DNA of 64,000 bases from Gammaproteobacteria bacterium (GCA_963662865.1 OY759969.1:2287742-2351741), one strand, 5' to 3'; shown: positions 2,573-63,540, counted from the first letter of the stretch. Program-made: numbers and translations. Notes: generated from the letters alone by a model not told the origin.

Positions 2573-3347
2573 TTACGACCATAATAACAGTAATCGTCGC
2601 AGAATTAAGCAATCCCTATAACCATGCCGGCTTTTCTTTACCGCCGGTACCTGTATGAGTCCGCCGCATATCGCACTTTTTGTTGCTAATAATGTAATGC
2701 GCCGGAGCTTGTAACCCCAGCCCTTTGTGTGGTCGGCAAGCTGGTTGCATTTGACCAGCCAATCGGCCAGCTTTTCGTTAAGCAAGCCCAAGTCTGCAAA
2801 CAATGGGCCTTCATGGAAGTCAACAAACTGTTCTTGGGCAATCCGGCTAAAACGAGAGTGTTCAATAATATGCGTGGTCAACAAGTGCTATAATGCAAGG
2901 ATGAAAAAGTCTATCGCACTCGCTCTCGCACTTTTGTCGTTCCCGCTCGGTGCTACCGAGCGAGTGCTGCTGGACTCACAAATCATCGCCAATCTGCCGA
3001 TAGATCGCCCGCAATCGCTCGACGAGATCGCACACGGCAAGTGGGGCTATGCGATTTTTGACCCCGAAAAGGTTCCGGTGTCAACCCGATACAAAATCGT
3101 CTCCGATCAAAGCAGACAATGCCTGACTCTGCGTTGAAGCAGACACTCTCCCCTTGACGGCCAAATCCGTTAAAAACGCCTCCATTTCCGCCTTGCCCAA
3201 CTCGACGGGATGGCGTTTATTGTGAAACAGGATATAGCGCTTAATCCAATTCAAGTAACTTTGTTCAGTCCTGATCGAATAATTCAATCGCTGCAAGCGC
3301 TCTCGCACCTGACTCAAGAAGGGAGATTTCATTTCTTTATTTTGCAT
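2573..3347 (-). pseudogene. intI: integron integrase (intI) pseudogene: N-terminal fragment (3130..3347) and a weak C-terminal-like fragment (2573..2884), separated by an inserted duplicated segment
   Basis: ORF 3081..3347 translates to VRERLQRLNYSIRTEQSYLNWIKRYILFHNKRHPVELGKAEMEAFLTDLAVKGRVSASTQSQALSAL. This matches the conserved N-terminal SAM-like region of integron integrases ([34 protein letters not shown]...VSVSTHRQALAAL). The ORF then runs into the antisense of the inserted repeat. ORF 2573..2884 contains HIIEHSRFSRIAQEQFVDF, weakly resembling the IntI segment HHMYDQTFQRAFKRAVEQ. The central roughly 170 aa of the integrase are absent. Confidence 0.65.
2885..3130 (+). repeat. duplicated copy (about 90% identity) of the 5' end plus 20 bp upstream of the DUF3047-like gene at 8186..8905 (original about 8659..8912, opposite strand)
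   Basis: ORF 2727..3137 encodes MKKSIALALALLSFPLGATERVLLDSQIIANLPIDRPQSLDEIAHGKWGYAIFDPEKVP. ORF 8186..8992 encodes MKSSIALVLTLLSLPLGAAERVLLDSQIIANLPIDRPQSLDEIARGKWGYAIFDPDKVP. The DNA aligns including the TATAAT-containing leader. Confidence 0.85.
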
Positions 3348-3516
3348 GATTTCGGCAAGATAAAATACGATTTAAAAACAAAAAATTGAATTAAATCAAT
3401 GGCATAAATAAATATCAATATTTCTTAATGCCAGAAACAGACGAATAATTTTAACACAAAAATTTTGTATCTGTCTGCATTCCATGATAGATTGGGAGAT
3501 CTACTAGTAGTTAGCA
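3348..3516 (+). other. putative attI / integron promoter region with a GTTAGCA crossover-like site at 3510
   Basis: AT-rich non-coding stretch between the intI start codon and the first cassette ORF. It ends in GTTAGCA, similar to the GTTAG(G/C)C cores of the downstream attC sites. Confidence 0.4.
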
Positions 3517-3539
3517 GGTAAAAACTTGAAGGGTGACTC

Positions 3540-3899
3540 ATGAGTAAACGATTAAGAGGTTCCTTCAGTGTCTACAAAGAAACCAATAAGTATAAAAACT
3601 TTGTGCAAGTTGAGATGCTTATCATTTCAATCATTATTGGCTATTCAGCATCATCCTGGTTTGTTTGGCTCATTTCATGTTTTTTGCTAGTAGGCGCACT
3701 TGGGACAAAAATCGAAATGATCATTGGCTGGGTTGTCACAATTTTATTGGCGATTTTGTCTACACTACTTTTATTCGAAGGCTCACAAAACCTAGAATTT
3801 AGTCTAGTTTTTGGTTTTTTACTGGGTGGAGTGTCTTGGTATATACATGATTGTGGAAACATATACTGGCGTGACTTTGTTGAGGCTGAATGGTGGTAA
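3540..3899 (+). CDS. small membrane protein (cassette 1, first ORF)
   Basis: 119 aa with three or four hydrophobic helices. AT-rich. Preceded by the RBS-like GAAGGG. Confidence 0.45.
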   Translation: MSKRLRGSFSVYKETNKYKNFVQVEMLIISIIIGYSASSWFVWLISCFLLVGALGTKIEMIIGWVVTILLAILSTLLLFEGSQNLEFSLVFGFLLGGVSWYIHDCGNIYWRDFVEAEWW

Positions 3900-3912
3900 T
3901 TAAAAAGAAAAA

Positions 3913-4632
3913 TTGAAAATTATCATGCCAGACCATAGCCAGGCAAATATATTTGATGTGCACCCATCACAAGAAATGGTAGCACTTTTTAAAGACAAAC
4001 CATTTCAAGGCCAATCACCCGAAAAAGCCTCCATTATATTTCTGAGCTCTGATGCAAATTATTCTCCAGAAATTTCAAACCATCCTTTTTTCAATTTTAT
4101 TTTGGAGTACCAGAAAAATGGAATTGCATTTTGGAAAAAATATGACTGCCATCATCCCTTCCTTTTATCAAACTATCCATTCAACAAAAATACAGGTGGC
4201 GTTCCTTTTCATCGGAATTTTAGGAAAATAGGGCTCAGCACTACCCATATTGAAAACATCTCATTCCTGGAACTTCTGGATATACCAACAATAGGGAACA
4301 AGTCAAAAAACAAAAAACTCTTTTATGATCTCGTCTCAAAATCTCACCTTGCGTACATAGAAAACCTTATGATGGGAGACTCCAGCAAATTATTTTTTGT
4401 ATCTAATGGTGTTTTGAAAGATATTGAAAAGTTAAAAAAACGGTTTCCAGTATTTAAATGGCTGGATCTGCCAGTGACGGGGCGACTTTCAAAAGGAATT
4501 AAAAGCAATAAAATCGAAGAGATTTATCATTTTTCTTCTTGGCAAATACATGGTCAACTTGCTGAAATTTCAACAATAATAAATAAATGGCTGGAAAAAT
4601 CTGCTAACAAATCACTTCAGCGGATGGCGTGA
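3913..4632 (+). CDS. hypothetical protein (cassette 1, second ORF)
   Basis: 239-aa ORF, AT-rich. Its 3' end overlaps attC-1. No family recognised. Confidence 0.45.
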   Translation: MKIIMPDHSQANIFDVHPSQEMVALFKDKPFQGQSPEKASIIFLSSDANYSPEISNHPFFNFILEYQKNGIAFWKKYDCHHPFLLSNYPFNKNTGGVPFHRNFRKIGLSTTHIENISFLELLDIPTIGNKSKNKKLFYDLVSKSHLAYIENLMMGDSSKLFFVSNGVLKDIEKLKKRFPVFKWLDLPVTGRLSKGIKSNKIEEIYHFSSWQIHGQLAEISTIINKWLEKSANKSLQRMA

Positions 4633-4693
4633 ACGTCGGCGGCGCTGACGCGGCAAGGTCGGGTGGCGCCACCGCTGAGTTCAAACGTTAGCC
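4602..4693 (+). other. attC site 1
   Basis: GCTAACAAATCA ... imperfect palindrome (TGAACGTCGGCGGCGC / GCGCCACCGCTGAGTTCA) ... GTTAGCC. Confidence 0.65.
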
Positions 4694-4733
4694 CCTTTAG
4701 GGAAATTGCATAAAACAGAAGTGCCATTAAATT

Positions 4734-5471
4734 ATGGAACTGTTCTTTCTCCTTCTGCTAATTTTTATCGTTTTACCCCTGGTATTTAGCTCGGCAAAGT
4801 ACAAGGGGTATGCGGGTGAAAGAAAAGTTGTACGTAAGCTTGGAAAATTTATCGATTCGATCGAGGGGGGTAAAGCATTCCATAATGTAACATTAGCAAC
4901 GCTCGATGGAACCACTCAAATTGATCATGTTCTTTTAGCCCCCCAAGGTATTTTCGTTATTGAAACTAAAAATATGACGGGATGGATATTTGGAGGGGAG
5001 TGGCAAAAAAGATGGACACAAACCATATATAAGAAAAAAGTAAATTTCCAAAATCCTATCCACCAAAACTACAAGCACGTAAAAGCACTGGAAAAACTGC
5101 TAGAAGCGAACCCTGAAATCATATTCAATGTTGTTGTTTTTGTAGGTGATGCCAAGTTTAAAACTGCTATGCCTGACAATGTTATGAAATTAAGAGGGCT
5201 GTTACCTTATATAAATTCGCATTCTGAGCACGTTTTAACCGGCAGAGACATTGAAAAGTATGATTCATTGATAGATCGAACCATTTCAGGCAACGTGGTA
5301 TCTGATAAACAGCACGTGCATAATGTTAAGAGAAATCGTGAGAACCCTATTTGTCCAAGGTGTGGAAGCTCTATGGTGCTGCGCACAGCGAAAAAAGGAA
5401 AGAATAAAGGCTCACAATTTTGGGGGTGCTCTGGTTTTCCATCATGCAGGGCAGTCAAGAAAAAGGGCTAA
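4734..5471 (+). CDS. NERD-domain protein with C-terminal topoisomerase-type C4 zinc finger (cassette 2)
   Basis: N-terminal TM segment. The NERD-like core is GERKVVRKL...IDHVLLAPQGIFVIETKN. C-terminal CPRCGSSMVLRTAKKGKNKGSQFWGCSGFPSCR matches the zf-C4 Topo-DNA-binding pattern. Confidence 0.7.
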   Translation: MELFFLLLLIFIVLPLVFSSAKYKGYAGERKVVRKLGKFIDSIEGGKAFHNVTLATLDGTTQIDHVLLAPQGIFVIETKNMTGWIFGGEWQKRWTQTIYKKKVNFQNPIHQNYKHVKALEKLLEANPEIIFNVVVFVGDAKFKTAMPDNVMKLRGLLPYINSHSEHVLTGRDIEKYDSLIDRTISGNVVSDKQHVHNVKRNRENPICPRCGSSMVLRTAKKGKNKGSQFWGCSGFPSCRAVKKKG

Positions 5472-5580
5472 CAATGGCGGTCGAGAGGGACTTACCTTCC
5501 GCGGTGTTCGTTTGTGCTTTACGCTACGCTAGCACAAGCCTCACCTCGCTACGGTAAGCCCCTCACCGCTAGCGTTAGGC
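5465..5580 (+). other. attC site 2
   Basis: GGCTAACAATGG ... inverted repeats ... CTCACCGCTAGCGTTAGGC. Confidence 0.7.
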
Positions 5581-5710
5581 TTTATACGCATATCGTTTGC
5601 AGCACCATTACTTTATGGAATAAGTAGACTATTACTACAGATCAAAGCCCAGAAAAGTGAATTTACTGGTAAATTTACGCATATTGGTTGTTTAAGAACT
5701 AGGAAATAGC

Positions 5711-6919
5711 ATGAGTAAATTAAAACTGGGAGTTATTGGAACTTCAAGAAAAGAAGATGAACGACGTTTCCCAATTCATCCAGAGCATTTGTCTCGTATT
5801 CCTGATGCTATTCGTCGTCAGCTAATATTTGAGGAGGGTTATGGAGCACCGTTTGATATTTCAGATTCAGAGATTGCTGCTCAGGCGGGTGGGATTGCAA
5901 CACGGCATGAATTATTAGCAGACATTGGCATGGTAATCATTTCAAAACCTGTACTGGCTGATTTATTGGAGCTCCGTGAAGGAGGAACGTTGTGGGGTTA
6001 TGTGCATTGTGTACAACAGCAGGATATCACTCAGGCTGCTTTGAACCGTAAGCAGACACTTATTGCCTTTGAGGATATGTTTGTTTGGTCTCCAAGCGGA
6101 CAACGATGTCGACATACATTCTATAAAAACAACGAATTAGCTGGTTATTGTGCGGTACTGCATGCCTTACAGCTTAAAGGAATCGATGGGCACTACGGCA
6201 ACCGCCGTAAAATAGTTATTTTCAGTTTTGGTGCAGTCAGTCGGGGAGCGATATACGCGCTCAAGGCTCATGGTTTTAGAGACATTACCATTTGTATTCA
6301 GCGCCCAGACCATGAAGTTCGTGAAGAGGTGCTTGATTGTCACTACGTTAAGGTTAGAGCGGGTAACGAAGACGAAGCGCGGATGATGGTGGTGGAGCAC
6401 GATGGAGCTAAAAGACCGTTGGCTGAACTCATTCTTGAAGCAGATATCATTGTAAATGGAACCTTTCAAGAAACGGATAATCCTACTGACTTTGTGATCG
6501 AAGAGGAAAGTTCGTGCCTTAAACCTCACAGTCTTATTATTGATGTCAGTTGTGATCAGGGAATGGGGTTCTTTTTTGCTAAACCAACCACATTTAAACA
6601 ACCGATATTTAAATATAAAACGATAGATTACTATGCTGTGGATCATACACCGAGCTTCCTTTGGGAAAGCGCAACTCGCTCAATTTCTGCCGCACTTATT
6701 GTATATTTATCAACGGTTCTATCGGGCCGTGATAGTTGGCAGAAAAATGAAACTATCAGATATGCTATAAATATTGATGGTGGTGTTATTAAAAAAACCT
6801 CAATTATTACGTTTCAAAATCGCGAATCGAATTACCCCCATAACCATATCAACCGACTTGAAAATAAATCCAAGAAGCCTAACAAATCAATCCAGCCGAC
6901 CGCCTTCGGCGGCGGCTGA
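5711..6919 (+). CDS. alanine dehydrogenase/PNT-family (N5-carboxyethyl-ornithine synthase-like) protein (cassette 3)
   Basis: 402 aa. N-terminal LKLGVIGTSRKEDERRFPIHPEH, followed by a Rossmann segment IVIFSFGAVSRGAIYAL. The family assignment is from pattern recall only. Confidence 0.45.
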   Translation: MSKLKLGVIGTSRKEDERRFPIHPEHLSRIPDAIRRQLIFEEGYGAPFDISDSEIAAQAGGIATRHELLADIGMVIISKPVLADLLELREGGTLWGYVHCVQQQDITQAALNRKQTLIAFEDMFVWSPSGQRCRHTFYKNNELAGYCAVLHALQLKGIDGHYGNRRKIVIFSFGAVSRGAIYALKAHGFRDITICIQRPDHEVREEVLDCHYVKVRAGNEDEARMMVVEHDGAKRPLAELILEADIIVNGTFQETDNPTDFVIEEESSCLKPHSLIIDVSCDQGMGFFFAKPTTFKQPIFKYKTIDYYAVDHTPSFLWESATRSISAALIVYLSTVLSGRDSWQKNETIRYAINIDGGVIKKTSIITFQNRESNYPHNHINRLENKSKKPNKSIQPTAFGGG

Positions 6920-6933
6920 TTGAGGCGTTAGGC
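6876..6933 (+). other. attC site 3
   Basis: GCCTAACAAATCAATCCAGCCGACCGCCTTCGGCGGCGGCTGATTGAGGCGTTAGGC, with a GCCTAAC inverse core and a GTTAGGC core around a short palindrome. Confidence 0.75.
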
Positions 6934-6956
6934 GCAAACCACAAACTAATGTTTTG

Positions 6957-8042
6957 TTAGGATTTTTCATTTAACAGAAACTCCATACCTGCCAACTCAT
7001 GTCCATTTACGATAATGCTAATCGAATGATTACCTGCATAATATTCTCTTGTTGAAATTTTCTTGAACGAAAAAGATTTCTTAACAGTTTTGTTATTACT
7101 ATCAACTTCTGACTCAGATATTTTGAATATTTTCCTTGATAAATTACCGCTTTTCTTAACAAAATCTATCGCATATTCAATTCTAAGCCTTCCGAGCTTT
7201 TGTTTTTGCGATTCAATTGTAAAAGAGAAATTCAGATTACCTTCCATTTCAACGGATTTTTGGGTTGTGAAATTTTTAATTTCAAGATGCTCTGGCTTTG
7301 AGAAGCCAAACAGATTCATTATCTCCGGCTGCCCTTGCTTTAGTAGCGTGCGACAAGCGTGCTTAATAATCCAGTCTGTTCGTTGATTGCTACCCAGCCA
7401 GCTCTTGGCTATCTCTATTACAATCTGTGGGTTATCTTTTGATATGTCATTCAGATTATTGGCAACGCTCCTTCTTACATATTCACTATCATCATTTTTC
7501 AGTTTTTCCAATATCGGCAGGATTTGGGATGGATCTCGCTTAAATTCAGGAAGTGCCATTGCCCAGGGTAAGCGAGGCCGACATCCTTCAGATGAAAGCC
7601 GACGTACATGGTGATTTTCTGATTCAGCCCATAATTCCATTTGTGCCATCATTTTCTTATTATGTTTTTTAATGAATGGTCGAACCGCAGACTCAGAACT
7701 TGCATACGAGGTGAAGTGCTCCAAAGCATGAATGGACTCTTCATACTGATCTAAGCCATACAGCTCCACAAAACCCGGAAAAAACATATACTGAAATCCA
7801 CTGAATTTTGATGACAATTTCATTAGTATTTGAATAGCATCAGAATAATCCATTGGTAAATATTGGTGCAATGATTCTGAAATATGTTTCATCCGCTCCT
7901 TTAGTTCTTTTTCTTTCCATTCATTATCAAATATATGAGAAGAAAACCCATCTTCATCAAAATTCTCATGCAGGCTTGACACTTGTTCGCACAAGGATTT
8001 TACAAGTTCAACGTTGTATAAGTTTTTTAATGGTTCCGGCAT
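6957..8042 (-). CDS. DNA alkylation repair protein (AlkD/AlkC-like HEAT-repeat glycosylase family) (cassette 4, reverse orientation)
   Basis: 361 aa. YVRRSVANNLNDISKDNPQIVIEIAKSWL matches the DNA_alkylation repair-enzyme family signature. Confidence 0.55.
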   Translation of the reverse strand: MPEPLKNLYNVELVKSLCEQVSSLHENFDEDGFSSHIFDNEWKEKELKERMKHISESLHQYLPMDYSDAIQILMKLSSKFSGFQYMFFPGFVELYGLDQYEESIHALEHFTSYASSESAVRPFIKKHNKKMMAQMELWAESENHHVRRLSSEGCRPRLPWAMALPEFKRDPSQILPILEKLKNDDSEYVRRSVANNLNDISKDNPQIVIEIAKSWLGSNQRTDWIIKHACRTLLKQGQPEIMNLFGFSKPEHLEIKNFTTQKSVEMEGNLNFSFTIESQKQKLGRLRIEYAIDFVKKSGNLSRKIFKISESEVDSNNKTVKKSFSFKKISTREYYAGNHSISIIVNGHELAGMEFLLNEKS

Positions 8043-8185
8043 GGTTGGTTTTGAATCCTAACATTGCCAATGAGCGGCTTATTTTTCAGTGGCAAGCGCA
8101 GCACAGCTACTGAAAAATAAGTCCGATTCAATTGGGCTTGTCAAGCTTTTTTCATAATATGGTATCGGATTCAGGCAAGAAAATG

Positions 8186-8905
8186 CTATTTTGCATCCGC
8201 GCTTTCGGCCAGTTTGATCTTCCGGAAGCGAGCGACTACCTTGCCCCCGGCATTGTCGGAGTCGGCCATCAGACCGATTCCGTCGATGATCGGGTCGGTT
8301 GCAAAAATCTCGCGCCACCACGCGGCGACATTGATCGCCTGACGATGCCATATACCGTTTTCTGCATCGGCATTGGCGAATGCGCGTATCTGTACCCGGT
8401 GCAGAAAGTTGTTATAGCGTTTATACGGGCTGGGCCATAGTGCGCCAACGGCTTTTTCGCGCGCACGCACCAGATTAAGCGTCCTTGAGCTTAATTTACC
8501 GCCGGCCGACAGGTAAATGCGAAAGGCGAAGTCATCGCCATCCCTGCTATCTTCGGGCGGCCCATTGGTCGGGGACTCATCGACACGCCAATCAAAGATC
8601 AAAAAGGGAGTTGCGCTCAGGTCGAGCGGCGTCTCGAACTTCAGGTAAAAAAACGACGCGCCCCCCATGGCAGTCGCTTGCAGTGCATGCCTGCCTTGAT
8701 CGGGGACGATTTCGTATCGGGTTGGTGCCGGGACCTTGTCGGGGTCAAAAATCGCATAACCCCACTTCCCGCGTGCGATCTCGTCGAGCGATTGTGGGCG
8801 ATCTATCGGCAGATTGGCGATGATTTGCGAATCCAACAGCACTCGCTCGGCAGCACCGAGCGGCAACGACAGCAGTGTAAGAACGAGTGCAATAGAGCTT
8901 TTCAT
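8186..8905 (-). CDS. secreted DUF3047-like protein
   Basis: Signal peptide MKSSIALVLTLLSLPLGAA. The likely start is ATG at 8905 rather than the upstream TTG of the track ORF. Its 5' end is duplicated at 2885..3130. Confidence 0.55.
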   Translation of the reverse strand: MKSSIALVLTLLSLPLGAAERVLLDSQIIANLPIDRPQSLDEIARGKWGYAIFDPDKVPAPTRYEIVPDQGRHALQATAMGGASFFYLKFETPLDLSATPFLIFDWRVDESPTNGPPEDSRDGDDFAFRIYLSAGGKLSSRTLNLVRAREKAVGALWPSPYKRYNNFLHRVQIRAFANADAENGIWHRQAINVAAWWREIFATDPIIDGIGLMADSDNAGGKVVARFRKIKLAESADAK

Positions 8906-8997
8906 CTCTGCATTATAGCTCTTGTCGGCCACGCATATATTGAAGCATGGCTTTATTACCGCTAACGTGTGTCTGAAATATAGCGAGGTCAATTATT

Positions 8998-9898: not shown

Positions 9899-10507
9899 AT
9901 GGATACTATGACCATGCCTGATAGAGTCGCCAGCGTAAAACGCGACACGCTGGAAACACAAATCGAAGCCTCCCTGAACCTGGACGGAATCGGTGAATCC
10001 GAATTTGAGACCGGCATACCTTTTCTTGACCACATGATGGACCAGATTGCCCGTCATGGCATGATTGATCTGTCTGTGAAAGCCAATGGTGATACCGGGA
10101 TTGATGATCACCACACAGTTGAAGATATTGGCATTACCATCGGCATGGCGTTGAAAAAGGCCCTGGGAGACAAGCAGGGCATCCGTCGCTATGGCCATGC
10201 CTATGTCCCTCTGGATGAAGCCTTATCACGAGTGGTGATGGATTTTTCCGGACGGCCCGGCATGGTATTCTGCGCTGAATTCACGCGCGCCCGTATTGGG
10301 GATTTCGATGTGGATCTGTTCCATGAATTTTTTCAGGGATTGGTCAATCATGCCCTGATTACGTTGCACATTGATTGCATCCGCGGCCAGAACAGCCACC
10401 ATATTGCCGAAACGATTTTCAAGGCATTCGGGCGTGCCCTGCGTATGGCCATCGAACCGGACCCGCGTATGGCCGGGGTGATTCCCTCAACCAAAGGCAC
10501 GCTTTAG
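9899..10507 (+). CDS. hisB: imidazoleglycerol-phosphate dehydratase
   Basis: [19 protein letters not shown] ... [13 protein letters not shown]. 202 aa. Confidence 0.9.
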
Positions 10508-10531: not shown

Positions 10532-11164
10532 ATGAAAGTGGCAATCATTGATTACGGCATGGGCAATTTGCGCTCGGTGTCCAAGGCGGTACAGCATGTT
10601 GCCAACGGCGCCGATGTGCAGGTCACGGACAGCCATGCGCAAATAAAGGCCGCGGACCGCGTTGTCTTCCCCGGTCAGGGTGCGGCACGCGACTGTATGG
10701 CGGCAATCGGCGATCACCAACTCAATCAGGCGATATTGGACGCCGCAAACAACAAGCCTTTTCTGGGTATCTGCATGGGTCTTGAGGTGTTGATGCGGCA
10801 TAGCCGGGAGAACGATGGTACCGATCTGCTCAATCTGCTGCCGGGTGAAGCAGTACGCTTCCCCCGTGATCTGAATCTGCGCGGCAAAAAACTCAAGGTC
10901 CCGCATATCGGATGGAACAAAGTTTCGCAAACCATGCAACACCCTCTGTGGAACGATATCGAAGACGGTTCACGCTTTTATTATGTCCACAGTTATTACG
11001 TAAAGCTCGAAGACATGTCCATACAGAGCGGAGAAACCGGCTATGGTATTCCTTTTACCTGCGCTATCGCACGGGACAATCTGTTTGCCGTACAGTTTCA
11101 CCCTGAAAAAAGTGCGCGCGCCGGACTCCGATTATTGCAAAACTTTATTGAGTGGGACATTTAG
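10532..11164 (+). CDS. hisH: imidazole glycerol phosphate synthase, glutamine amidotransferase subunit
   Basis: MKVAIIDYGMGNLRSV ... GICMGLEVL ... HPEKS. Confidence 0.9.
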   Translation: MKVAIIDYGMGNLRSVSKAVQHVANGADVQVTDSHAQIKAADRVVFPGQGAARDCMAAIGDHQLNQAILDAANNKPFLGICMGLEVLMRHSRENDGTDLLNLLPGEAVRFPRDLNLRGKKLKVPHIGWNKVSQTMQHPLWNDIEDGSRFYYVHSYYVKLEDMSIQSGETGYGIPFTCAIARDNLFAVQFHPEKSARAGLRLLQNFIEWDI

Positions 11165-11947
11165 ATGCTGCTGATTCCCGCTATTGATCTGAAGGACGGC
11201 AAGTGTGTTCGCCTGCGTCAGGGGCGTATGGATGATGAGACCATATTTGCCGATGACCCGGTTGCGATGGCGGGCAAATGGGTGGATGCGGGCTGCAACC
11301 GCCTGCATCTGATTGACCTCAATGGCGCCTTTGAGGGTAAGCCGGTCAATGCCGATGTGATTAATCGAATCTGCGATGCCTACCCCGATATTCCGATTCA
11401 GGTGGGTGGCGGCATTCGCACGGAAGACACCGTTGCTGCTTATTTGGATGCCGGGGCGCAGTTTGTCATTATCGGCACGCAGGCGATCAAGGCGCCGCGC
11501 TTTATCGCCGATCTGTGTAACAAGTTCCACGACCATATTATTATCGGTCTTGACGCCAAAAACGGGCGGGTCGCGGTGGAGGGTTGGGCGGAGATCACCG
11601 GCGAGCAAGCCATTGATGTTGCCAGGAAATTCGAGGACGCAGGCATCAGCGCCATTATTTATACCGATATTGCCCGTGATGGCATGATGGAAGGCGTCAA
11701 TGTTGAGGCGGTAAAGGCGCTGGCTGAAGCCGTCTCCATCCCTGTTATTGCATCGGGTGGCGTATCCCGGTACGCGGATATCCGCGCACTACAGGCTGTA
11801 TCAGACAGCGGCATCATAGGAGCCGTTATTGGCCGCGCAATATATGAAGGAACCATTGATCTGGTAACAGCGCAGGAAATCATCAACCAACCGCAGAAAG
11901 CTATTGATCCGGCGACAGAGCAAGAAGCTATCATGCCATCACCATGA
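11165..11947 (+). CDS. hisA: 1-(5-phosphoribosyl)-5-[(5-phosphoribosylamino)methylideneamino]imidazole-4-carboxamide isomerase
   Basis: [20 protein letters not shown]. Gene order is hisH-hisA-hisF. Confidence 0.9.
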
Positions 11948-11962
11948 ATCGGAAGGCAGAAT

Positions 11963-12751
11963 ATGTCTGCGGCGGTTTCCATGCTGGCTAAACGCATTAT
12001 CCCCTGCCTGGATATTGACGCCGGTCGTGTCGTCAAGGGCGTCCGGTTTGTTGATATACGTGATGCGGGTGACCCGGTTGAAGCCGCGCGCCGCTACGAC
12101 GAGCAGGGCGCGGATGAAATTACCTTTCTTGATATCACGGCCACATCCGATGCCCGCGATACTATGGCGCGTGTTGTCGAGGAAGTTGCCGCGCAGGTCT
12201 TTATCCCGCTCACGGTCGGCGGAGGTATCCGCACGGTTGATGATATTCGGCGCCTGCTCAATGCGGGCGCCGACAAGGTAGGTATCAATTCCGCTGCTGT
12301 GAAACGGCCCGAATTCGTCAAAGAAGCCGCCGACAGGGTCGGTTCGCAATGTATCGTATTATCTATCGACGCCAGGCGCGTAAACACCGATGATAAAACG
12401 CCACGTTGGGAAATTTTTACCCATGGCGGCCGTCAGGGTACAGGGATTGATGCCGTGGAATGGGCCATTCGTATGACAGAGTACGGCGCCGGTGAAATCC
12501 TGCTGACCAGCATGGACCGTGATGGCACCCGTGATGGCTTTGATCTGGAGCTAACGCGCACCGTCTGCGACGCGGTTGATGTCCCTGTTATCGCCTCCGG
12601 AGGCGTCGGCAGCCTGGACCACCTCGTGGCCGGAGTGACTGAAGGCGGGGCCGACGCAGTGCTGGCCGCCAGTATTTTCCATTTCAGCGACTACACCGTG
12701 CGACAGGCAAAGGAGTATATGGCCGGTAAGGGCATAGAAGTCAGGTTATAA
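11963..12751 (+). CDS. hisF: imidazole glycerol phosphate synthase, cyclase subunit
   Basis: [22 protein letters not shown] ... [10 protein letters not shown]. Confidence 0.9.
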
Positions 12752-12753
12752 AA

Positions 12754-13071
12754 ATGGACGATACTCTGCAAAAACTCGCCGGAATTTTGCAATCGCGCAA
12801 GGCCGAAGACCCGGAGAAATCCTATGTCGCCGGCCTTTATGTAAAAGGTATGGATAAAATCCTGCAGAAGGTTGGTGAAGAGGCCACTGAGCTTATTATT
12901 GCCGCGAAAGATAACGACAGAGACCAGATTATCCACGAAACCGCTGACCTGTGGTTTCATACCCTGGTCATGCTGGTTCAGGCCGGCCTCGGTCCAGACG
13001 ATGTTCTAAAGGAGCTGGAACATCGTTTGGGCACTTCAGGGCATGACGAAAAAGCCTCAAGAAATCAATAG
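12754..13071 (+). CDS. hisE: phosphoribosyl-ATP pyrophosphatase
   Basis: 105 aa. [26 protein letters not shown]. Confidence 0.85.
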
Positions 13072-13166
13072 CCTGCGCTGGCCTTGCCCCGAATCCCTTA
13101 TCCGGCATCGCCTCCGGCGTTTGCCTGAAATGGAGCGACACGAAAACCGGCTATTTCCCGCGTATT

Positions 13167-13817
<651 letters not shown>

Positions 13818-18813: not shown

Positions 18814-19800
18814 TTAATCATCGCGCCCACAGACACCGACGCTATCCGGCAGCCTCAAGGCCCCGGTCAAATCACCAATAGACCCAATCTCCATGCCATC
18901 CATATACTCGACCAGACCGTTGTTGATCCGCTTACAGACGATGGGGTCATAGAACAGGGCAGTACCAACCCCAATTGTGGTTGCGCCGGCCAGTAAAAAT
19001 TCCACGGCATCATTCGCCGAGGCGATGCCGCCCTGGCCAATAATCGGAATATTGTGTTTCTTTGCTACCTGATAAACCTCATGCACCTTGAGTAACGCAA
19101 TTGGTTTTATAGCCGGGCCGGAGAGTCCCCCCTGCACACTGCCGATAATCGGTACCCGGTTCTCAATATCAACAGCCATTCCAACCAGAGTATTAATAAC
19201 AGCAAGGCCATCGGTGCCGGCATCAATACAGCGTCGGGCATTTTCAGCAATATCGGTCTGATTTGGGGACAGCTTGGTAATGATTGGTTTACTGGTAACG
19301 GCCCGGCAGGCCCCGACCACCCTTGCCGACATGTCCGGGTCATTTCCAAATGCCGCACCGCCCTGTTTGACATTCGGGCAGGAAATATTGATCTCAATGG
19401 CATCTACGGGGGAGCCATCAAATCTGTGCACGACATCGACGTATTCCGCTACAGTCGAACCCGAGGCATTGGCGAAGAATCTGGTTTCTTCGAAATCCAG
19501 CGTCGGCAGGATATCGTCGATAACGGCATCAACTCCGGGATTTTGCAGGCCAATGGCGTTGATCACGCCCGCCGGAACCTCAGCCAGACGATGCGGAGGA
19601 TTCCCCAGACGCGCCGTTCCCGTCGTTCCCTTCAGGCAGACTGCGCCGACATCACGATTACTGAATCCTTCTATACGTGTGTACTCCTCGCCGAACCCGA
19701 CACAGCCGGAAAGCAGTACAATAGGACTACCCAGCTCAATACCACAAAAGGATACCTTTAATCGCGAGTCTAGCTCATGCTGCATGTTGTGCTCTATCAA
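18814..19800 (-). CDS. dihydroorotate dehydrogenase-family (class 1 PyrD / PreA-like) flavoprotein
   Basis: [14 protein letters not shown] and [30 protein letters not shown]. Confidence 0.65.
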
Positions 19801-20406: not shown

Positions 20407-21013
20407 AATAAGGCAGGGGCTGCCCAAGCCACTGTTCGATTTTCTCCCTGGCCTCATTCAACCCGCGCCTGTCTGCGGCTGAAAACAACTGCATACTGAT
20501 ATTGGTGTCTGTTTTCGCCAGCCGGGAACGAACACTGCACAGCGTTGCGCTTGCCGGGCCATGCCTTAATTTATCGCTTTTAGTCAGCAAACAGTGGATC
20601 GGTATCCCGATATCCGAGACCCAGTTGATCAGTTGCAGATCCAGATCTTTCAGTGGATGTCGAACATCCATTATCACCAGCAGCCCCACCAGACCGGCAC
20701 GGGTTTCAAAATACGCTCCGAGCGTCTGATCCCAATGCTGGCGCAACTTTGGCGGCACCCTGGCATAGCCATACCCCGGTAAATCCACCAGATAGCGTCG
20801 TTCGGCCAGCTCAAAATAATTAATCTGTCGGGTTCGTCCCGGTTGCTTGCCGGTCCTTGCCAGACCACCAATTCCGGTAATCACGTTTAAGGCGCTGGAT
20901 TTGCCGGCGTTAGAACGCCCGGCAATTGCGACCTCCAGGCCAGTATCCGGCAGGCACTGGTCGAGACTGTGCGCACCCCGGATAAAGCGGGCTTGTGAGA
21001 AATTGATCGGCAT
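20405..21013 (-). CDS. engB: ribosome biogenesis GTP-binding protein YihA/EngB
   Basis: EVAIAGRSNAGKSSALN, DLPGYGYA and LLTKSDKL. Confidence 0.9.
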   Translation of the reverse strand: MPINFSQARFIRGAHSLDQCLPDTGLEVAIAGRSNAGKSSALNVITGIGGLARTGKQPGRTRQINYFELAERRYLVDLPGYGYARVPPKLRQHWDQTLGAYFETRAGLVGLLVIMDVRHPLKDLDLQLINWVSDIGIPIHCLLTKSDKLRHGPASATLCSVRSRLAKTDTNISMQLFSAADRRGLNEAREKIEQWLGQPLPY

Positions 21014-23866: not shown

Positions 23867-26623
23867 TTATTCCGTAAGGATGTCTTTTATGTCCGATGCT
23901 TTTTTTGAAACCGCAAACTTCCATTTGCCGAATCTGCCGTTTTCGTTGACGGCTTTAATCCATTCTTTCATGTATGCGTGTTTTGTATCGTCTTTTTCTT
24001 TTTGCTGGCCCTTGGTTTCCAGCACAAGCAATTCTCCCGATTTCATCCGCACAAGAAAATCGGGGCGGTATTTTTTCACAATGCCATTGTAGATATATAA
24101 AACCTCAAAACCGAGATGGTCATTTTTAACCCACGCCTCAACCGCTTTATTTCTATCAAGCTCGAAAGATTCTGATGCTTCCCAGGTGCTGTCATAAACA
24201 CAGTAATTGATATGGCTTCTTTTCGCGGCTTTGCAGGGTTTGCCGGTCCGCCATGGGCGCATGTCGCCGGTTGATCGAATCGGATGGTTGTCATCAAGCA
24301 CAAGAGCGGTTTTCTCTGTATTGTTAAATTCTATTGCCTGCCAGAAATGACGAATGATCTTTGACATATTGAGCGTTATCACAAGATGTCTTCTCTTTAC
24401 ATCCTGATTAAAGAGAGCGGGCATTATCTGTATGCGGTCTGAATCCAGAAACTGTTCCGCAAGACGCACAAGTTCTGCCATCAATAGCGGCGCAGATGCC
24501 GGCCATTCAGGTTTCATTTCCTGCCAGACGATTTGTGCCGCCTTGAATACAAGGGTTTGTTTGCGGAATTTTTTCGCCAGCTTTTCAATATCAATGTCTT
24601 CAATTTGGGAAACGTCAGGCTTGTTATTTACCGTGGGCGCGATCTCCGCTATTTCAACGGTTGTTGAAGTATCCAGTTCCAGTTTTTTTATTTTTTTCCA
24701 ATCAATGGCAAGTTCGGGCCTGTAAGTTCTGTCTATGCGGATGACATTGGGCCACGAAATGGCAAACTGTCTCTTTTCATCCACAGGCCGAATGATCGTT
24801 TTCGGCGGCGGAGGCGGTGGAGGTTTATCCATGTCTTCGTGTGGCAGAAAGCTGAACGGCACACCGAAAACATTGACATATTCGGCATCAAATAATCCCG
24901 TGTCTTCATTGATTTCATAAGAAGCACGGCGTAGCCCACGCCCGATAATCTGCTCACATAACAATTGACTTGTGAATGCCCGCAGCCCCATAATCTGCGT
25001 CACTGTCCTTGCATCCCAGCCTTCGGACAACATTCCAACGGATATAACATTCTGTACTTGATCACCAGGTTTCCCTTCCTGCCCGACCGTGTTCACTTTT
25101 TCACGCAGAATTTCAGCCTGTTCTTTTTTCGTTGCTTTGCGACTACCTTCCCTGCCTGCTTTTGTTGTGCCCGGTTCCGGCTCTTTTTCCTCGGCTTTTT
25201 TCAGCACTTCCGAGTCGATATGCAAAATCCCATTGGGAGCGCATAACTCATGAATGCTAATGTCCTTATTGTCAAAGGCATACTTGATTCTGGCTGCTGT
25301 TTCCGTGCGGTTTGCGACCGTAATCATCACCGGCGGCGTTTTCGCCCCTTGTCCCTCCCATATTTCTTTTGTTTTTAACCAATCGTAACCGAGCAGGAGA
25401 TAGGCGTTTCTTACAAGGTCGGGAGGCGGTTCATGCGGTTCAGCCTTTCTGTTCAGGTCATCTTTGACTTCCTCTTCGTTGTAGATGTGATACAGGCGGG
25501 ATTTATGGGTACTGGCATTTGGCAGAGCGTCATCACGCACAACAACACGGGGTGTTTTGACAAGCCCTGATTCTATGGCGTCACTGAGTCCGAAATCGCT
25601 GACAATCCAGGGGAACAACATCTCTTCCGATGTCTTCTTGCCGCTTGGTGCAAATGGCGTAGCAGAAAAATCAAAGCAATTCAAAATCCCCCTGGTTTTG
25701 TGTATGCGGTCAAGGCCACCAACCCATTTTGTGGCCTCGTCTATTTCCTCTTTCCTGACACCTGCTATTTTTGACTGTGCCGGAACACGCCAGGCATGAT
25801 GGGCCTCATCGTTAATCACAATCAGATTTCTGGCATTGGCCATATCACCGAGAACTTCGCGGGTATATGCCTCATCGCTTTTCGCGCCGCGTTTATCCAC
25901 CCCTTTCTTCTTTTTGATTTTTTCCTCACTTTCCCAGTTCAGGGTATGCCAGTTTCTTATGAGAACCTTTGCCTGTCTCAGCTTTTCGAGCAGGGACAAC
26001 GGCACAATACCGAACTCATCGTAATAGTTCTGCCTGTTTGATGGCATCAAAACAGAAAGACGCTCCCTGACGGTCAGATTAGGCGCGACAATAAAAACAT
26101 TTTGTGAAAACCGCCTGTCTTGAGGGTAAGTGGCGCGATTGATGGCCTGCCACGCAATCAGCATGGCCATGACAACGGTCTTCCCTGTACCAGTGGCGAG
26201 CTTGGAGCACAAACGGCTCAGTTCTCTGTCCTTTGCAATTTCAATTCCGGTCTTTTCCGAGTCGGGAGTTTCAATAAACCATATCAGCGTTTCAATCGCT
26301 TCCATCTGGCAGAAGAAAAACGGGAAATCTCTTTGCTCGTTGTCCCTCCAGTGTTCAAGCAGGGCTTTGGTAATACCCGTAATTCCGGGGCAGCCCGCTT
26401 TGCACCAGGAGTCAACACGTTTACGGATTTGGTTGACGGTCGGCAGGGGAACAAAAATGCCCTTGTCCTGATGCGGTTTTGCCTTCGGGTCGGCAACCAT
26501 ATAACCCGCTTCACGACGACCCTCCACACGCTCAAGCGGGGCGTCTTCCTCGACGAACTTCCAGTGCTTGGAAGGTGCAGAGCAGGGGGAGTTGATTATG
26601 AGTGATGAGGATTTTTCAGGCAT
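23867..26623 (-). CDS. res: Type III restriction endonuclease subunit (Res): SF2 helicase plus C-terminal PD-(D/E)xK nuclease
   Basis: Helicase motif I LATGTGKTVVMA and motif II VINDEAHHAW. C-terminal endonuclease motif YRPDFLVRMKSGELLVLETKG. 918 aa. Confidence 0.85.
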   Translation of the reverse strand: MPEKSSSLIINSPCSAPSKHWKFVEEDAPLERVEGRREAGYMVADPKAKPHQDKGIFVPLPTVNQIRKRVDSWCKAGCPGITGITKALLEHWRDNEQRDFPFFFCQMEAIETLIWFIETPDSEKTGIEIAKDRELSRLCSKLATGTGKTVVMAMLIAWQAINRATYPQDRRFSQNVFIVAPNLTVRERLSVLMPSNRQNYYDEFGIVPLSLLEKLRQAKVLIRNWHTLNWESEEKIKKKKGVDKRGAKSDEAYTREVLGDMANARNLIVINDEAHHAWRVPAQSKIAGVRKEEIDEATKWVGGLDRIHKTRGILNCFDFSATPFAPSGKKTSEEMLFPWIVSDFGLSDAIESGLVKTPRVVVRDDALPNASTHKSRLYHIYNEEEVKDDLNRKAEPHEPPPDLVRNAYLLLGYDWLKTKEIWEGQGAKTPPVMITVANRTETAARIKYAFDNKDISIHELCAPNGILHIDSEVLKKAEEKEPEPGTTKAGREGSRKATKKEQAEILREKVNTVGQEGKPGDQVQNVISVGMLSEGWDARTVTQIMGLRAFTSQLLCEQIIGRGLRRASYEINEDTGLFDAEYVNVFGVPFSFLPHEDMDKPPPPPPPKTIIRPVDEKRQFAISWPNVIRIDRTYRPELAIDWKKIKKLELDTSTTVEIAEIAPTVNNKPDVSQIEDIDIEKLAKKFRKQTLVFKAAQIVWQEMKPEWPASAPLLMAELVRLAEQFLDSDRIQIMPALFNQDVKRRHLVITLNMSKIIRHFWQAIEFNNTEKTALVLDDNHPIRSTGDMRPWRTGKPCKAAKRSHINYCVYDSTWEASESFELDRNKAVEAWVKNDHLGFEVLYIYNGIVKKYRPDFLVRMKSGELLVLETKGQQKEKDDTKHAYMKEWIKAVNENGRFGKWKFAVSKKASDIKDILTE

Positions 26624-27920: not shown

Positions 27921-28192
27921 TCCACCTCTACAATCTCCATCACCTTCAAACTCTCAATCCTTCGATCATCCATGGTTCGAATGGTTTCAATTGCCTCACT
28001 CCGGCGGAAAAAGAATGGGAAATTCCTTTGTTCATCGTCCTGATGCAGTTTTGCCTTCGGGTCGGCAACCATATAACCCGCTTCACGACAGCCTTTCACA
28101 CGCTCAAACGAGGCGTCTTCCTCGATGAACTTCCAGTGTTTGGAAGGTGCGGCGTAGAGGGAGTTGATTATGAGAGATTTTAGGGCTAACAT
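27917..28192 (-). pseudogene. chimeric remnant: res 5' end (with an internal deletion) fused to a mod-3'-end-like sequence
   Basis: The 91-aa ORF MLALKSLIINSLYAAPSKHWKFIEEDASFERVKGCREAGYMVADPKAKLHQD|DEQRNFPFFFRRSEAIET|IRTMDDRRIESLKVMEIVEVE aligns to Res aa 8-52, then Res aa 93-112. Its tail resembles the Mod C-terminus VKIVDDRGIESLKVINVIQRK. The DNA at 28000..28192 is roughly 85-90% identical to 26318..26623. Confidence 0.8.
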
Positions 28193-51489: not shown

Positions 51490-52135
51490 GCCACACAACC
51501 AGATAATCAAGCCAGACCAGCGAAAAAAGACTAGAACCTATCTCAAGTGTTATCCCAACTACAAAACGGTCCATCGGCGTTTTCAAAAATGGTGCGAAGA
51601 CCATGTGATTCGTGACATGATGGTGGAGCTTGTCAATACATTGAGAGCGCAAAATGACTTAAGATGAATTGGAATGTTTTATTGACGGCATGTTTTCTCC
51701 AGCCAAAGGTGGAGGCGAAGAAATTAGGTTGACCAAGCGCGGAAAAGGCATTAAAATCATGGCGATAGTGGACAAACACGGATTGCCTTTGTCGGTCAGT
51801 CCTCATGCGGCCAGTCACCATGAAGTGACATTAGTTCAACTGAGTTTTGATTTTTACATGATTGAGGCGAGGCCGGAAAAACTGATTGGAGATAAGTCGC
51901 TATGACAGCGCTCCGTTTGATGAAGAACTGGCAGAACAAGGAATAGAAATGATTGCGCCGCACAAGCGAAATCGAGTCAAGCCAAGTACTTAAAATGGGC
52001 GAAAACTCAGGCGCTATCAATGGCGCTGGTTGGCCGAATATTTTCGGTGGGAGTATTATGCTGCTAATTTCCTGGGCTTTGTTCAACTGGCTACTGTTAA
52101 TATCCTGCTTAAACAATTTTGATATAGGTCTTAAT
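51490..52135 (+). mobile_element. IS5-family DDE transposase gene remnant (frameshifted and 5'-truncated)
   Basis: Pieces in three frames: YKTVHRRFQKWCEDHVIRDMM; ECFIDGMFSPAKGGGEEIRLTKRGKGIKIMAIVDKHGLPLSVS...EARPEKLIGDKSYDS; [17 protein letters not shown]...RRYQWRWL. The IS5/IS1031-type C-terminal region carries a deletion relative to the second copy. Confidence 0.75.
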
Positions 52136-53295: not shown

Positions 53296-53640
53296 GATTT
53301 TTCAAAACACTTTTGAGTTTTGATTTTTACATGATTGAGGCGAAGCCGGAAAAACTGATTGGAGATAAGGCCTATGACAGCGATCCGCTTAATGTAAGGG
53401 CTGGCAGAACAAGGAATAGAAATGATTGCGCCACACAAGAGAAATCAAGTTAAGCCAAGTACTCAAGATGAACGAAAGCTCAGGCGCTATCAGCGCCGCT
53501 GGTTGGTTGAACGTTTTTTTGCCTGGATACAATGGCAAAGACGCTTCCTTGTTCGATGGGAATATCATGCTGCCAATTTCCTGGGCTTTGTTCAACTGGC
53601 TACTGTTAATATCCTGCTTAAACAATTTTGAGATAGGCTC
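53296..53640 (+). mobile_element. second, partial copy of the IS5-family transposase 3' end (direct repeat of 51850..52135)
   Basis: [74 protein letters not shown] is about 88% identical to the first copy and ends 5 bp before the trpD ATG. Confidence 0.75.
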
Positions 53641-63464: not shown

Positions 63465-63540
63465 TGGCTCCCCCGGCCGGGCTCGAACCAGCGACCCAAT
63501 GATTAACAGTCATTTGCTCTACCAACTGAGCTACAGGGGA
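63465..63540 (-). tRNA. tRNA-Asn (GTT)
   Basis: Reverse complement TCCCCTGTAGCTCAGTTGGTAGAGCAAATGACTGTTAATCATTGGGTCGCTGGTTCGAGCCCGGCCGGGGGAGCCA. GTT anticodon in the CTGTTAA loop, with an encoded CCA end. The plus-strand ORF 63424..63660 (…LLYQLSYRG…) is the usual tRNA translation artefact. Confidence 0.9.

Follow-up and report, generated by a model that had tools for sequence, protein, structure and literature searches.

A probable degraded chromosomal integron, with an integrase stub and four cassettes, in an uncultured gammaproteobacterium

The 64,000-nucleotide (nt) stretch of Gammaproteobacteria bacterium DNA considered here (GCA_963662865.1, OY759969.1:2287742-2351741; hereafter the window) very probably contains a real but degraded chromosomal, or sedentary, integron without a working integrase, made up of an intI stub, an attI site and four cassettes. 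Integron integrases (IntI) are tyrosine recombinases that insert circular cassettes by recombining the folded bottom strand of the cassette's attC site with a double-stranded attI site at G|TT, and cassette excision by IntI is recombination between two attC sites. Because only codons 1-81 of intI are left, without the catalytic domain, the locus in the window is unable to recombine on its own. It lies in an island of foreign composition, with 35-45% GC (3100-8180) compared with 52-56% in the surrounding genome region, with a hydrogenase-maturation cluster to the left and DUF3047-moxR-hisBHAFE to the right. The original prediction, made from this DNA alone, was of a degraded chromosomal integron resembling a CALIN, a cluster of attC sites in which the integron integrase is lacking. 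It is borne out by a surrogate attC covariance model, by the permuted ends of the cassettes, and by homology breakpoints against a related genome. For comparison we retrieved, by means of the DUF3047 protein, two syntenic loci from uncultured Gammaproteobacteria, L001 (OZ243932.1) and L002 (JAPYNQ010000017).

What is left of the integrase? The open reading frame (ORF) that includes the stub (3081-3347, minus strand, 88 amino acids) matches, through its residues 10-81, positions 1-72 of the 315 in the TIGR02249 'integron integrase' model with an E value of 1.2e-24; the next unrelated model, for a XerA-type recombinase, gives E 0.003. The same ORF matches Pfam Phage_int_SAM_4 (E 3.6e-24) and the solved Vibrio integrase structure 2a3v (VchIntIA/IntI4; E 3e-18). 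Full-length IntI1, taken from a plasmid locus, aligns with the window over residues 17-87 only, with about 55% identity over the shared 71 residues, and no match to the catalytic/C-terminal domain of this query is found anywhere in the 64 kb. The integrase is thus an inactive stub of 81 codons, and the minus-strand, non-functional N-terminal fragment of intI that had been proposed is indeed present.

An attC site has the boxes R'' (RYYYAAC) and R' (GTTRRRY), a stem formed by L'' and L', a spacer that stays unpaired and, on the R''/L'' side of its folded bottom strand, extrahelical bases. Such sites were sought with a covariance model, R1, built from five short attC sites of class 1 plasmid integrons (aadA1, aadB, an orf cassette, aadA5 and blaOXA-198, from a source set of six plasmid class 1 integrons). 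The structure of the model was set by hand, with only the R and L boxes paired, and the search space was the window plus the two related loci, 105.6 kb on both strands. MAFFT alignments of the unequal local attC sites, and of eight class 1 sites, were too poor for model building. In the window R1 finds attC 1, attC 2 and attC 3, all on the plus strand and with ends exactly as predicted by eye, and no further match at E<=10. attC 3 is a textbook site, scoring 44.9 bits on the plus strand versus 16.7 bits on the minus strand. On folding, each of the three sites pairs its R boxes and leaves a short spacer unpaired, and the bottom strand carries its extrahelical bases on the 3' arm: a T and a G six bases apart in attC 3, as in the aadA1 and aadB attC sites, a T and an A in attC 1, and a 3-nt bulge in attC 2. 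The bottom-strand hairpins of attC 1, 2 and 3 have z-scores of -1.9, -4.0 and -7.3, respectively. The heptamer CTAACAA occurs four times in the 64 kb, always inside 4604-6960, and the combination of CTAACAA with CGTTAG 35-96 nt later is expected only 0.01-0.03 times per window. The exact ends of the R1 matches and the extrahelical bases of the folded bottom strands confirm the three proposed sites of R''/L''...L'/R' layout. The further proposal that they form one conserved family stands only in part: the CTAACAA...CGTTAG boxes are common to all three, but the lengths are 57, 92 and 115 nt, and the L box TCAGCSG...CSGCTG shared by attC 1 and attC 3 is replaced by a different one in attC 2. A looser scan, combining R''/R' boxes with folding, produced about 15 false positives in the window, and TAAC...GTTAG boxes were found only in the three real sites.

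IntI inserts a cassette as a circle that has been opened at G|TT, so the first six bases of the cassette (TTRRRY) must complement its own R''. All four window cassettes obey this permutation rule at six positions of six (TTAGCA/TGCTAAC, TTAGCC/GGCTAAC, TTAGGC/GCCTAAC and TTAGGA/TCCTAAC). When the window and L001 are taken together, eight of nine cassettes do so, a result reached by none of 200,000 random re-pairings. Where the window is aligned with L001, homology stops exactly at GTTA in each case: in attI, and in the R' cores that border cassette 3 on either side. Breakpoints this precise are direct evidence that the segments are cassettes, with the cores as their crossover points. Cassette 3 itself is 99-100% identical in L001, where it occupies another array position between other neighbours. 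At attI, near-identity between the window and L001 begins at the intI start and lasts as far as ...TAGTAGTTA, after which the two sequences are unrelated; this places a G|TT crossover site next to the start of intI, where the original prediction had put an attI-like region. The rightward run of cassettes abutting at G|TTAGSC is likewise upheld by the permutation rule and the L001 breakpoints. L001 also shares the intI stub and attI (96%) and cassette 4 (95-99%), so that two cassettes of the window are found again in another integron.

Might there be no integron at all, the palindromes being ordinary terminators or repetitive extragenic palindrome (REP)-like repeats and the integrase-like ORF a phage- or Xer-type fragment? 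Every hairpin does occupy a gene's 3' end, a place where terminators too are found, and Rfam, which has no attC family, returns only noise and one tRNA from scans of the region (by E value) and of the whole window (at the gathering threshold); however, the hairpins are not followed by T-runs of the terminator kind, they are found specifically by a model trained on class 1 sites, the permutation rule holds and the breakpoints fall exactly at cores, and the stub matches IntI better than it does XerA-type recombinases by more than 20 orders of magnitude, and we regard this explanation, to which we attach virtually no probability, as effectively refuted.

By IntegronFinder's definitions the element is a CALIN, here one with an intI pseudogene. 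A CALIN comprises at least two attC sites clustered within 4 kb, with no integrase detected by the intI_Cterm and PF00589 profiles (Cury et al. 2016, PMC4889954). In the window three to four attC sites lie inside 3.6 kb, and Pfam detects no Phage_integrase domain in any ORF of the integron region. The integrase of a complete integron has the PF00589 catalytic domain and the IntI-specific C-terminal insertion, and here the match to TIGR02249 is confined to positions 1-72 of 315. In its location the locus agrees with a sedentary integron, since it stands beside DUF3047-moxR-his genes in the window, in L001 and in L002. It does not have the long array of similar attC sites: there are four cassettes, and the sites, of 57, 92, 115 and 91 nt, have differing L boxes. 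We also considered the DUF3047 gene as a further cassette, as CGTTAGC is found upstream of it, and rejected this, for the box breaks the permutation rule, the GC content is core-like, and the gene is syntenic in L002 without an attC. Taken alone, the element is of an ordinary kind, similar to Xanthomonas chromosomal integrons; as a further example of a degraded chromosomal integron, from an uncultured gammaproteobacterium, it is helpful for annotation and unsurprising. Coordinates of the features are collected in Table 1.

Table 1. Features in and beside the integron, in window coordinates; scores in bits are those of the R1 model.
Feature	Position	Strand	Description
IS481-like transposase C-terminal fragment	2573-2884	-	tblastn against plasmids: 65 records, best E 5e-5
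Inverted partial DUF3047 copy	2861-3118	+	Promoter region and about 72 codons; source is the gene at 8186-8992 (-)
intI stub	3105-3347	-	Codons 1-81 of an integron integrase of about 320 amino acids; catalytic C-terminal domain gone
attI region	3348-3516	+	Core GTTAGCA 3510-3516; crossover G3510|T3511
Cassette 1	3511-4687	+	ORF 3540-3899 and ORF 3913/3925-4632; start TTAGCA is the complement of its own R'' TGCTAAC
attC 1	4602-4693	+	92 nt; R'' TGCTAAC, R' GTTAGCC; 26.6 bits, E 3e-4
Cassette 2	4688-5574	+	NERD and C4 zinc ribbon protein 4734-5471; start TTAGCC complements R'' GGCTAAC
attC 2	5466-5580	+	115 nt; R'' GGCTAAC, R' GTTAGGC; 20.7 bits, E 0.011
Cassette 3	5575-6927	+	AlaDH/PNT-family enzyme 5711-6919; Pfam AlaDh_PNT_N/C; ORF extends into attC
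attC 3	6877-6933	+	57 nt; R'' GCCTAAC, R' GTTAGGC; 44.9 bits, E 7e-9
Spacer	6928-6956	+	29 nt, TTAGGCGCAAACCACAAACTAATGTTTTG, between the last direct attC and cassette 4
Cassette 4	6957-8140	-	AlkD-like (DNA_alkylation/HEAT) gene 6957-8042 (-); Pfam DNA_alkylation E 1.3e-7
attC 4	8056-8146	-	Inner box TCCTAAC 8056-8062, long imperfect stem, outer box GTCAAGC 8140-8146
DUF3047 gene	8186-8992	-	Core-genome right flank of the array; Pfam DUF3047 E 6.6e-28; syntenic in L001 (94% amino-acid identity) and L002 (82%)

The cassette contents named in the original prediction hold: a small predicted membrane protein with an ORF of 239 amino acids, a NERD/zinc-finger protein, an AlaDH/PNT enzyme and a reverse-oriented AlkD-like protein. 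In cassette 1, the ORF at 3540-3899 would encode a predicted membrane protein of 119 amino acids. Its 239-residue neighbour gives an AlphaFold model with a predicted local distance difference test (pLDDT) score of 93, and the top 35 or so Foldseek matches in the PDB are all to UDG, TDG or MUG proteins. These matches are modest (E 3.5e-3 or worse, template modelling score about 0.45), and there is no sequence-level match to PDB chains and none to Pfam families; the model points to a predicted uracil-DNA-glycosylase fold. Members of this protein family are widespread at 56-78% identity (in Thiomicrorhabdus, Sulfuricurvum, Desulfobacterota and others), with the invariant motifs SSDANYS, HHPF and HFS. 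In one locus with a homologue, L012, the membrane ORF is not kept beside it. The protein of cassette 2, whose stop codon falls within R'', matches Pfam NERD (E 4.5e-31) and Zn_ribbon_Top1 (E 2e-9) and, as a partial domain match in PADLOC, the N-terminal region of PglW (E 1.8e-9). The cassette 3 enzyme, to judge from the names of its homologues, probably belongs to the N5-(carboxyethyl)ornithine synthase family, and homologues 80-91% identical to it sit in ordinary chromosomal contexts. One 88%-identical copy of the cassette 3 gene is found on a metagenomic scaffold, L013, between ispH and type IV pilus genes. It is preceded by an IS66-like fragment and followed by an eroded attC-like element (L013 7168-7254, L014 1654-1740; GCCTGAC...GTTATGT; 5.6 bits with R1). 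This copy may be a fossil single cassette.

At the left end the original prediction went too far, in that it took 2573-3104 as intI. The sequence there consists instead of an IS481-like fragment and an inverted DUF3047 fragment. The plasmid features matched by 2573-2884 are annotated 'IS481 family transposase' or 'integrase core domain', Pfam and NCBIfam give no match for the ORF, and the IS481-family assignment is weak but consistent. The adjoining DUF3047 copy forms an inverted repeat with its source (2868-3118 / 8688-8938, 88% identity; blastn of 2861-3118 against 8944-8688 gives 87.6%). It is fused to the truncated intI at codon 81, by way of a microhomology of about 11 nt that both parents share (CAAAGCAGACA, 3108-3118). 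Because the 5' end of DUF3047 has been copied on the left, inverted repeats of 258 nt bracket the integron. The resulting mosaic of three fragments looks like a scar of illegitimate recombination. qmoA and qmoB, the ancestral left neighbours, are absent from the window.

One might suspect the assembly instead: the integrase would be intact in the real genome, and the broken intI and inverted DUF3047 copy would be a chimera formed at a repeat. It is true that the junction lies at the end of the 258-nt inverted repeat and that the source chromosome is metagenome-derived. The copies of the repeat, however, are only 88% identical, a divergence large enough for a long-read assembler to keep them apart. 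At this locus intI is truncated in two other genomes as well, at different points, and the window genome has two further, differently truncated stubs. We consider a chimera very improbable.

Cassette 4 presents a different problem, for its gene runs against the rest of the array. The original prediction let the element end at 8130; attC 4 in fact runs to 8146, but the reverse-oriented AlkD-like cassette that it described is real, and has its own attC. The stop codon of the AlkD-like gene lies inside TCCTAAC AAA on the minus strand (box 6962-6956), the arrangement seen at the 3' ends of the direct cassettes, and the cassette boundary, TTAGGA, complements TCCTAAC at 8056-8062 without a mismatch. 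That second box reads GTTAGGA on the minus strand, and this makes it an exact counterpart to the gene's 3'-end box. The only hairpin of the cassette is upstream of the gene, at 8056-8146; its fold has a z-score of -3.8 to -4.4, and of -7.2 with both boxes restored. In the restored site all of the bulges are on the 3' arm of the plus strand, so that, by the rule of the other local sites, its bottom strand is the plus strand and the polarity of attC 4 is opposite to that of attC 1-3. The last six bases of attC 4 are chromosomal flank: CTTGAC is also found downstream of DUF3047 in L002, where there is neither hairpin nor gene. At the other end, the spacer TTAGGCGCAAACCACAAACTAATGTTTTG also follows the last direct attC in L001, though other cassettes precede it there, and it probably represents either what was once the right half of attI or the end of the array. 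Cassette 4 is present in L001 and not in L002. Most likely, then, 6957-8140 is a single cassette that recombined through the 'wrong' (top) strand at R'', 29 nt beyond the array's last core, and it may be a case, found in nature, of wrong-strand attC recombination. We also considered a composite origin, with attC 4 left by a lost upstream cassette and the AlkD attC truncated; this is disfavoured, because the outer box CTTGAC is flank present in L002.

Is a wrong-strand event needed? Cassette 4 might be an ordinary insertion carrying a backward gene, with attC 4 of the same polarity as the other sites. The boundaries at 6957 and 8140 obey the permutation rule equally well on this account (TTAGGA versus R'' TCCTAAC, 8056-8062), arrays normally have flank sequence at the end of their last attC, as is the case for attC 4, and reverse-encoded genes occur in many toxin-antitoxin cassettes. 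Three features are at odds with it. The bulges of attC 4 are on the plus-strand 3' arm, and elsewhere, in the local and the class 1 sites, that arm belongs to the recombined bottom strand. The stop codon is inside the CTAACAAA box on the minus strand, as in the direct cassettes. Finally, a plus-strand reading has ATT after R'', whereas all nine other local sites have AAR. The backward-gene account keeps a sizeable chance, though one well short of even, and recombination through the top strand remains our preferred explanation for cassette 4.

When was the integrase lost, and what has happened to the array since? In both L001 and L002 the intI remnant extends to about codon 130 and is followed by common qmoA upstream sequence, at about 83% identity, a 72-nt indel aside. 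As this figure for the intI/qmoA junction equals that of the surrounding core, the truncation is older than the split of the L001 and L002 lineages. The window stub is a further-shortened derivative of the L001-type stub. L001 and L002 have no cassettes in common, and apart from the shared segments the L001 array differs from that of the window, with two other cassettes at attI and several more elements separating cassette 3 from cassette 4, namely a methyltransferase/endonuclease-like cassette, one with a SET domain and an IS256-family element. Since L001 and L002 share the old truncation while their arrays differ, cassette content changed after the integrase was lost, and the sequence comparison suggests that cassette turnover continued after local loss of the enzyme. 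The agent of such turnover would be an integrase supplied in trans, or the import of array segments by homologous recombination through conserved flanks. By ordering the events, integrase loss and then array change, the three genomes bear on the question of whether CALINs are fossils or working cassette stores.

Some further features of these genomes may be recorded here. The IS256-family element of L001 (12130-13400), whose transposase is frameshifted, is inserted in the attC of the SET-domain cassette. L001 also has a second array beyond its intI stub, with attC sites at 20416-20476 and about 19495-19625, toward a truncated qmoA. In L002 the position of cassette 4 is occupied by 10893-13630, with IS1595-like transposase, DNA methyltransferase and HNH-like ORFs and core-like GC; here a different mobile insertion has taken up the same end of the array. 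The window genome (2,573,357 bp) and the L001 genome (2,513,604 bp), both of about 2.5 Mb, each carry three different N-terminal intI stubs of 59-175 amino acids, mutually 80-93% identical. Each stub is truncated or frameshifted at a different point; the further ones are P0002 and P0005 in the window genome, and those of the L001 genome are P0121, P0122 and P0123. A genome of about 2.5 Mb would on this evidence contain several degraded integron platforms.

Identity between the window and L001 stays at 92-100% from 3105 to about 10200, a span that takes in the intI stub, DUF3047, moxR and the beginning of hisB, and falls to about 80% from roughly 10200-10500 onward, in the his operon. On the face of the alignment, this tract would indicate a recent exchange of the whole integron region between diverged lineages. 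Did the array differences, then, arise in strains with a live integrase, to be imported as blocks through the conserved flanks (the intI stub and attI on one side, DUF3047-moxR on the other), with no integrase ever acting on the dead locus? A tract of 92-100% identity between genomes whose his operons are at about 80% speaks for such imports, and whole-array interspecies transfer has been reported in Xanthomonas (bioRxiv 10.1101/2025.06.18.660453). Transformation-driven cassette shuffling also appears, from one further source, to have been reported for chromosomal integrons (PMC12614218). Inside the shared tract, however, whole cassettes set the window apart from L001, both at attI and downstream of cassette 3, the breakpoints being exactly at cores, and such core-exact differences require either several nested imports or site-specific events. 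We put the import of blocks at a little under an even chance. The more far-reaching proposal, that arrays beside dead stubs are still being rewritten at attI/attC crossovers by an integrase in trans, and that cassette 4 is a top-strand product in a non-canonical site beside attI, we offer tentatively and think on the whole unlikely. If true, it would make 'integrase-less' arrays live cassette stores served by an integrase in trans.

Several points weigh against the interpretation given here. R1 is a surrogate made from five sequences and is not IntegronFinder's own attC model; attC 2 is marginal with it (E 0.011), only a fragment being reported with filters off, and attC 4 is undetected by it. 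With R1, no attC is detectable near four sampled homologues of the UDG-fold protein (on four contigs) or near three sampled homologues of the AlaDH-like enzyme (on three contigs). An outward promoter (Pc) was not found above chance by a simple scan. The outer, or recipient, triplet of attC 4 is GTC, as against the expected GTT or the GWT reported for genomic insertion sites. Tracts of high identity shared by metagenome-assembled genomes, moreover, could in principle be assembly artefacts.

How does the locus compare with known systems? Like other CALINs (PMC4889954), it has at least two clustered attC sites and no functional integrase, the array is small, and most cassettes are without a known resistance function. 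An insertion sequence (IS) fragment adjoins the window array, and 38% of CALINs have a neighbouring IS. A recognizable intI pseudogene was reported for 15 of 279 CALINs (5%) in a screen that targeted the C-terminal domain (PMC4889954). The window differs in keeping the N-terminal domain of intI and an intact attI; a C-terminal screen would miss the stub and report the locus as an ordinary CALIN.

Biologically, the nearest counterpart is the chromosomal integron of Xanthomonas, for which an ancestral locus downstream of ilvD and widespread, lineage-specific inactivation of intI have been described (bioRxiv 10.1101/2025.06.18.660453). Common to both are a conserved chromosomal locus (here between DUF3047 and, originally, qmoA), early intI inactivation, arrays that differ between lineages, and signs of interspecies transfer of the array region. 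The present hosts differ in being uncultured Gammaproteobacteria with genomes of about 2.5 Mb, and in having three intI stubs in each of two genomes. Inactivation is reported to stabilize the arrays in Xanthomonas, whereas here the arrays differ despite a shared old truncation.

The attC sites of class 1 integrons (aadA1, aadB, aadA5) resemble attC 3 in length (57-60 versus 57 nt), in R boxes (GCCTAAC/GTTAGGC), in a 3-nt apical loop, and in the L box, where an extrahelical T and an extrahelical G stand six bases apart. The likeness to class 1 integrons ends there, for the present locus has no resistance genes, no Tn402/sul1 context and no working IntI1.

Integron cassettes have also been described as stores of anti-phage genes, including UDG-like glycosylases (bioRxiv 10.1101/2024.07.02.601686, 10.1101/2025.10.29.685425). 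The window has a cassette with a predicted UDG fold, a NERD nuclease-domain cassette and an AlkD-like cassette of the glycosylase family, to which L001 adds the methyltransferase/endonuclease-like cassette. In contrast to those stores, PADLOC gives only partial domain matches here, and the UDG-fold family is also found outside integrons. By analogy, the UDG-fold, NERD and AlkD-like cassette genes are reasonable candidates for anti-phage functions.

Elsewhere in the window, the sole Rfam match above the gathering score is a tRNA gene at 63468-63540 (minus strand). Downstream of the hydrogenase large subunit are two tandem paralogous small ORFs, 988-1302 and 1332-1679 (104 and 115 amino acids), both with Cys pairs and the C-terminal end ...C(D/E)LPEL.VPVEPEW.CRLWRI. 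There is also an inverted repeat pair, 51841-52128 / 53314-53637 (about 290-325 nt, 80% identity), and a direct repeat pair, 26465-26606 / 28037-28178 (142 nt, 90% identity).

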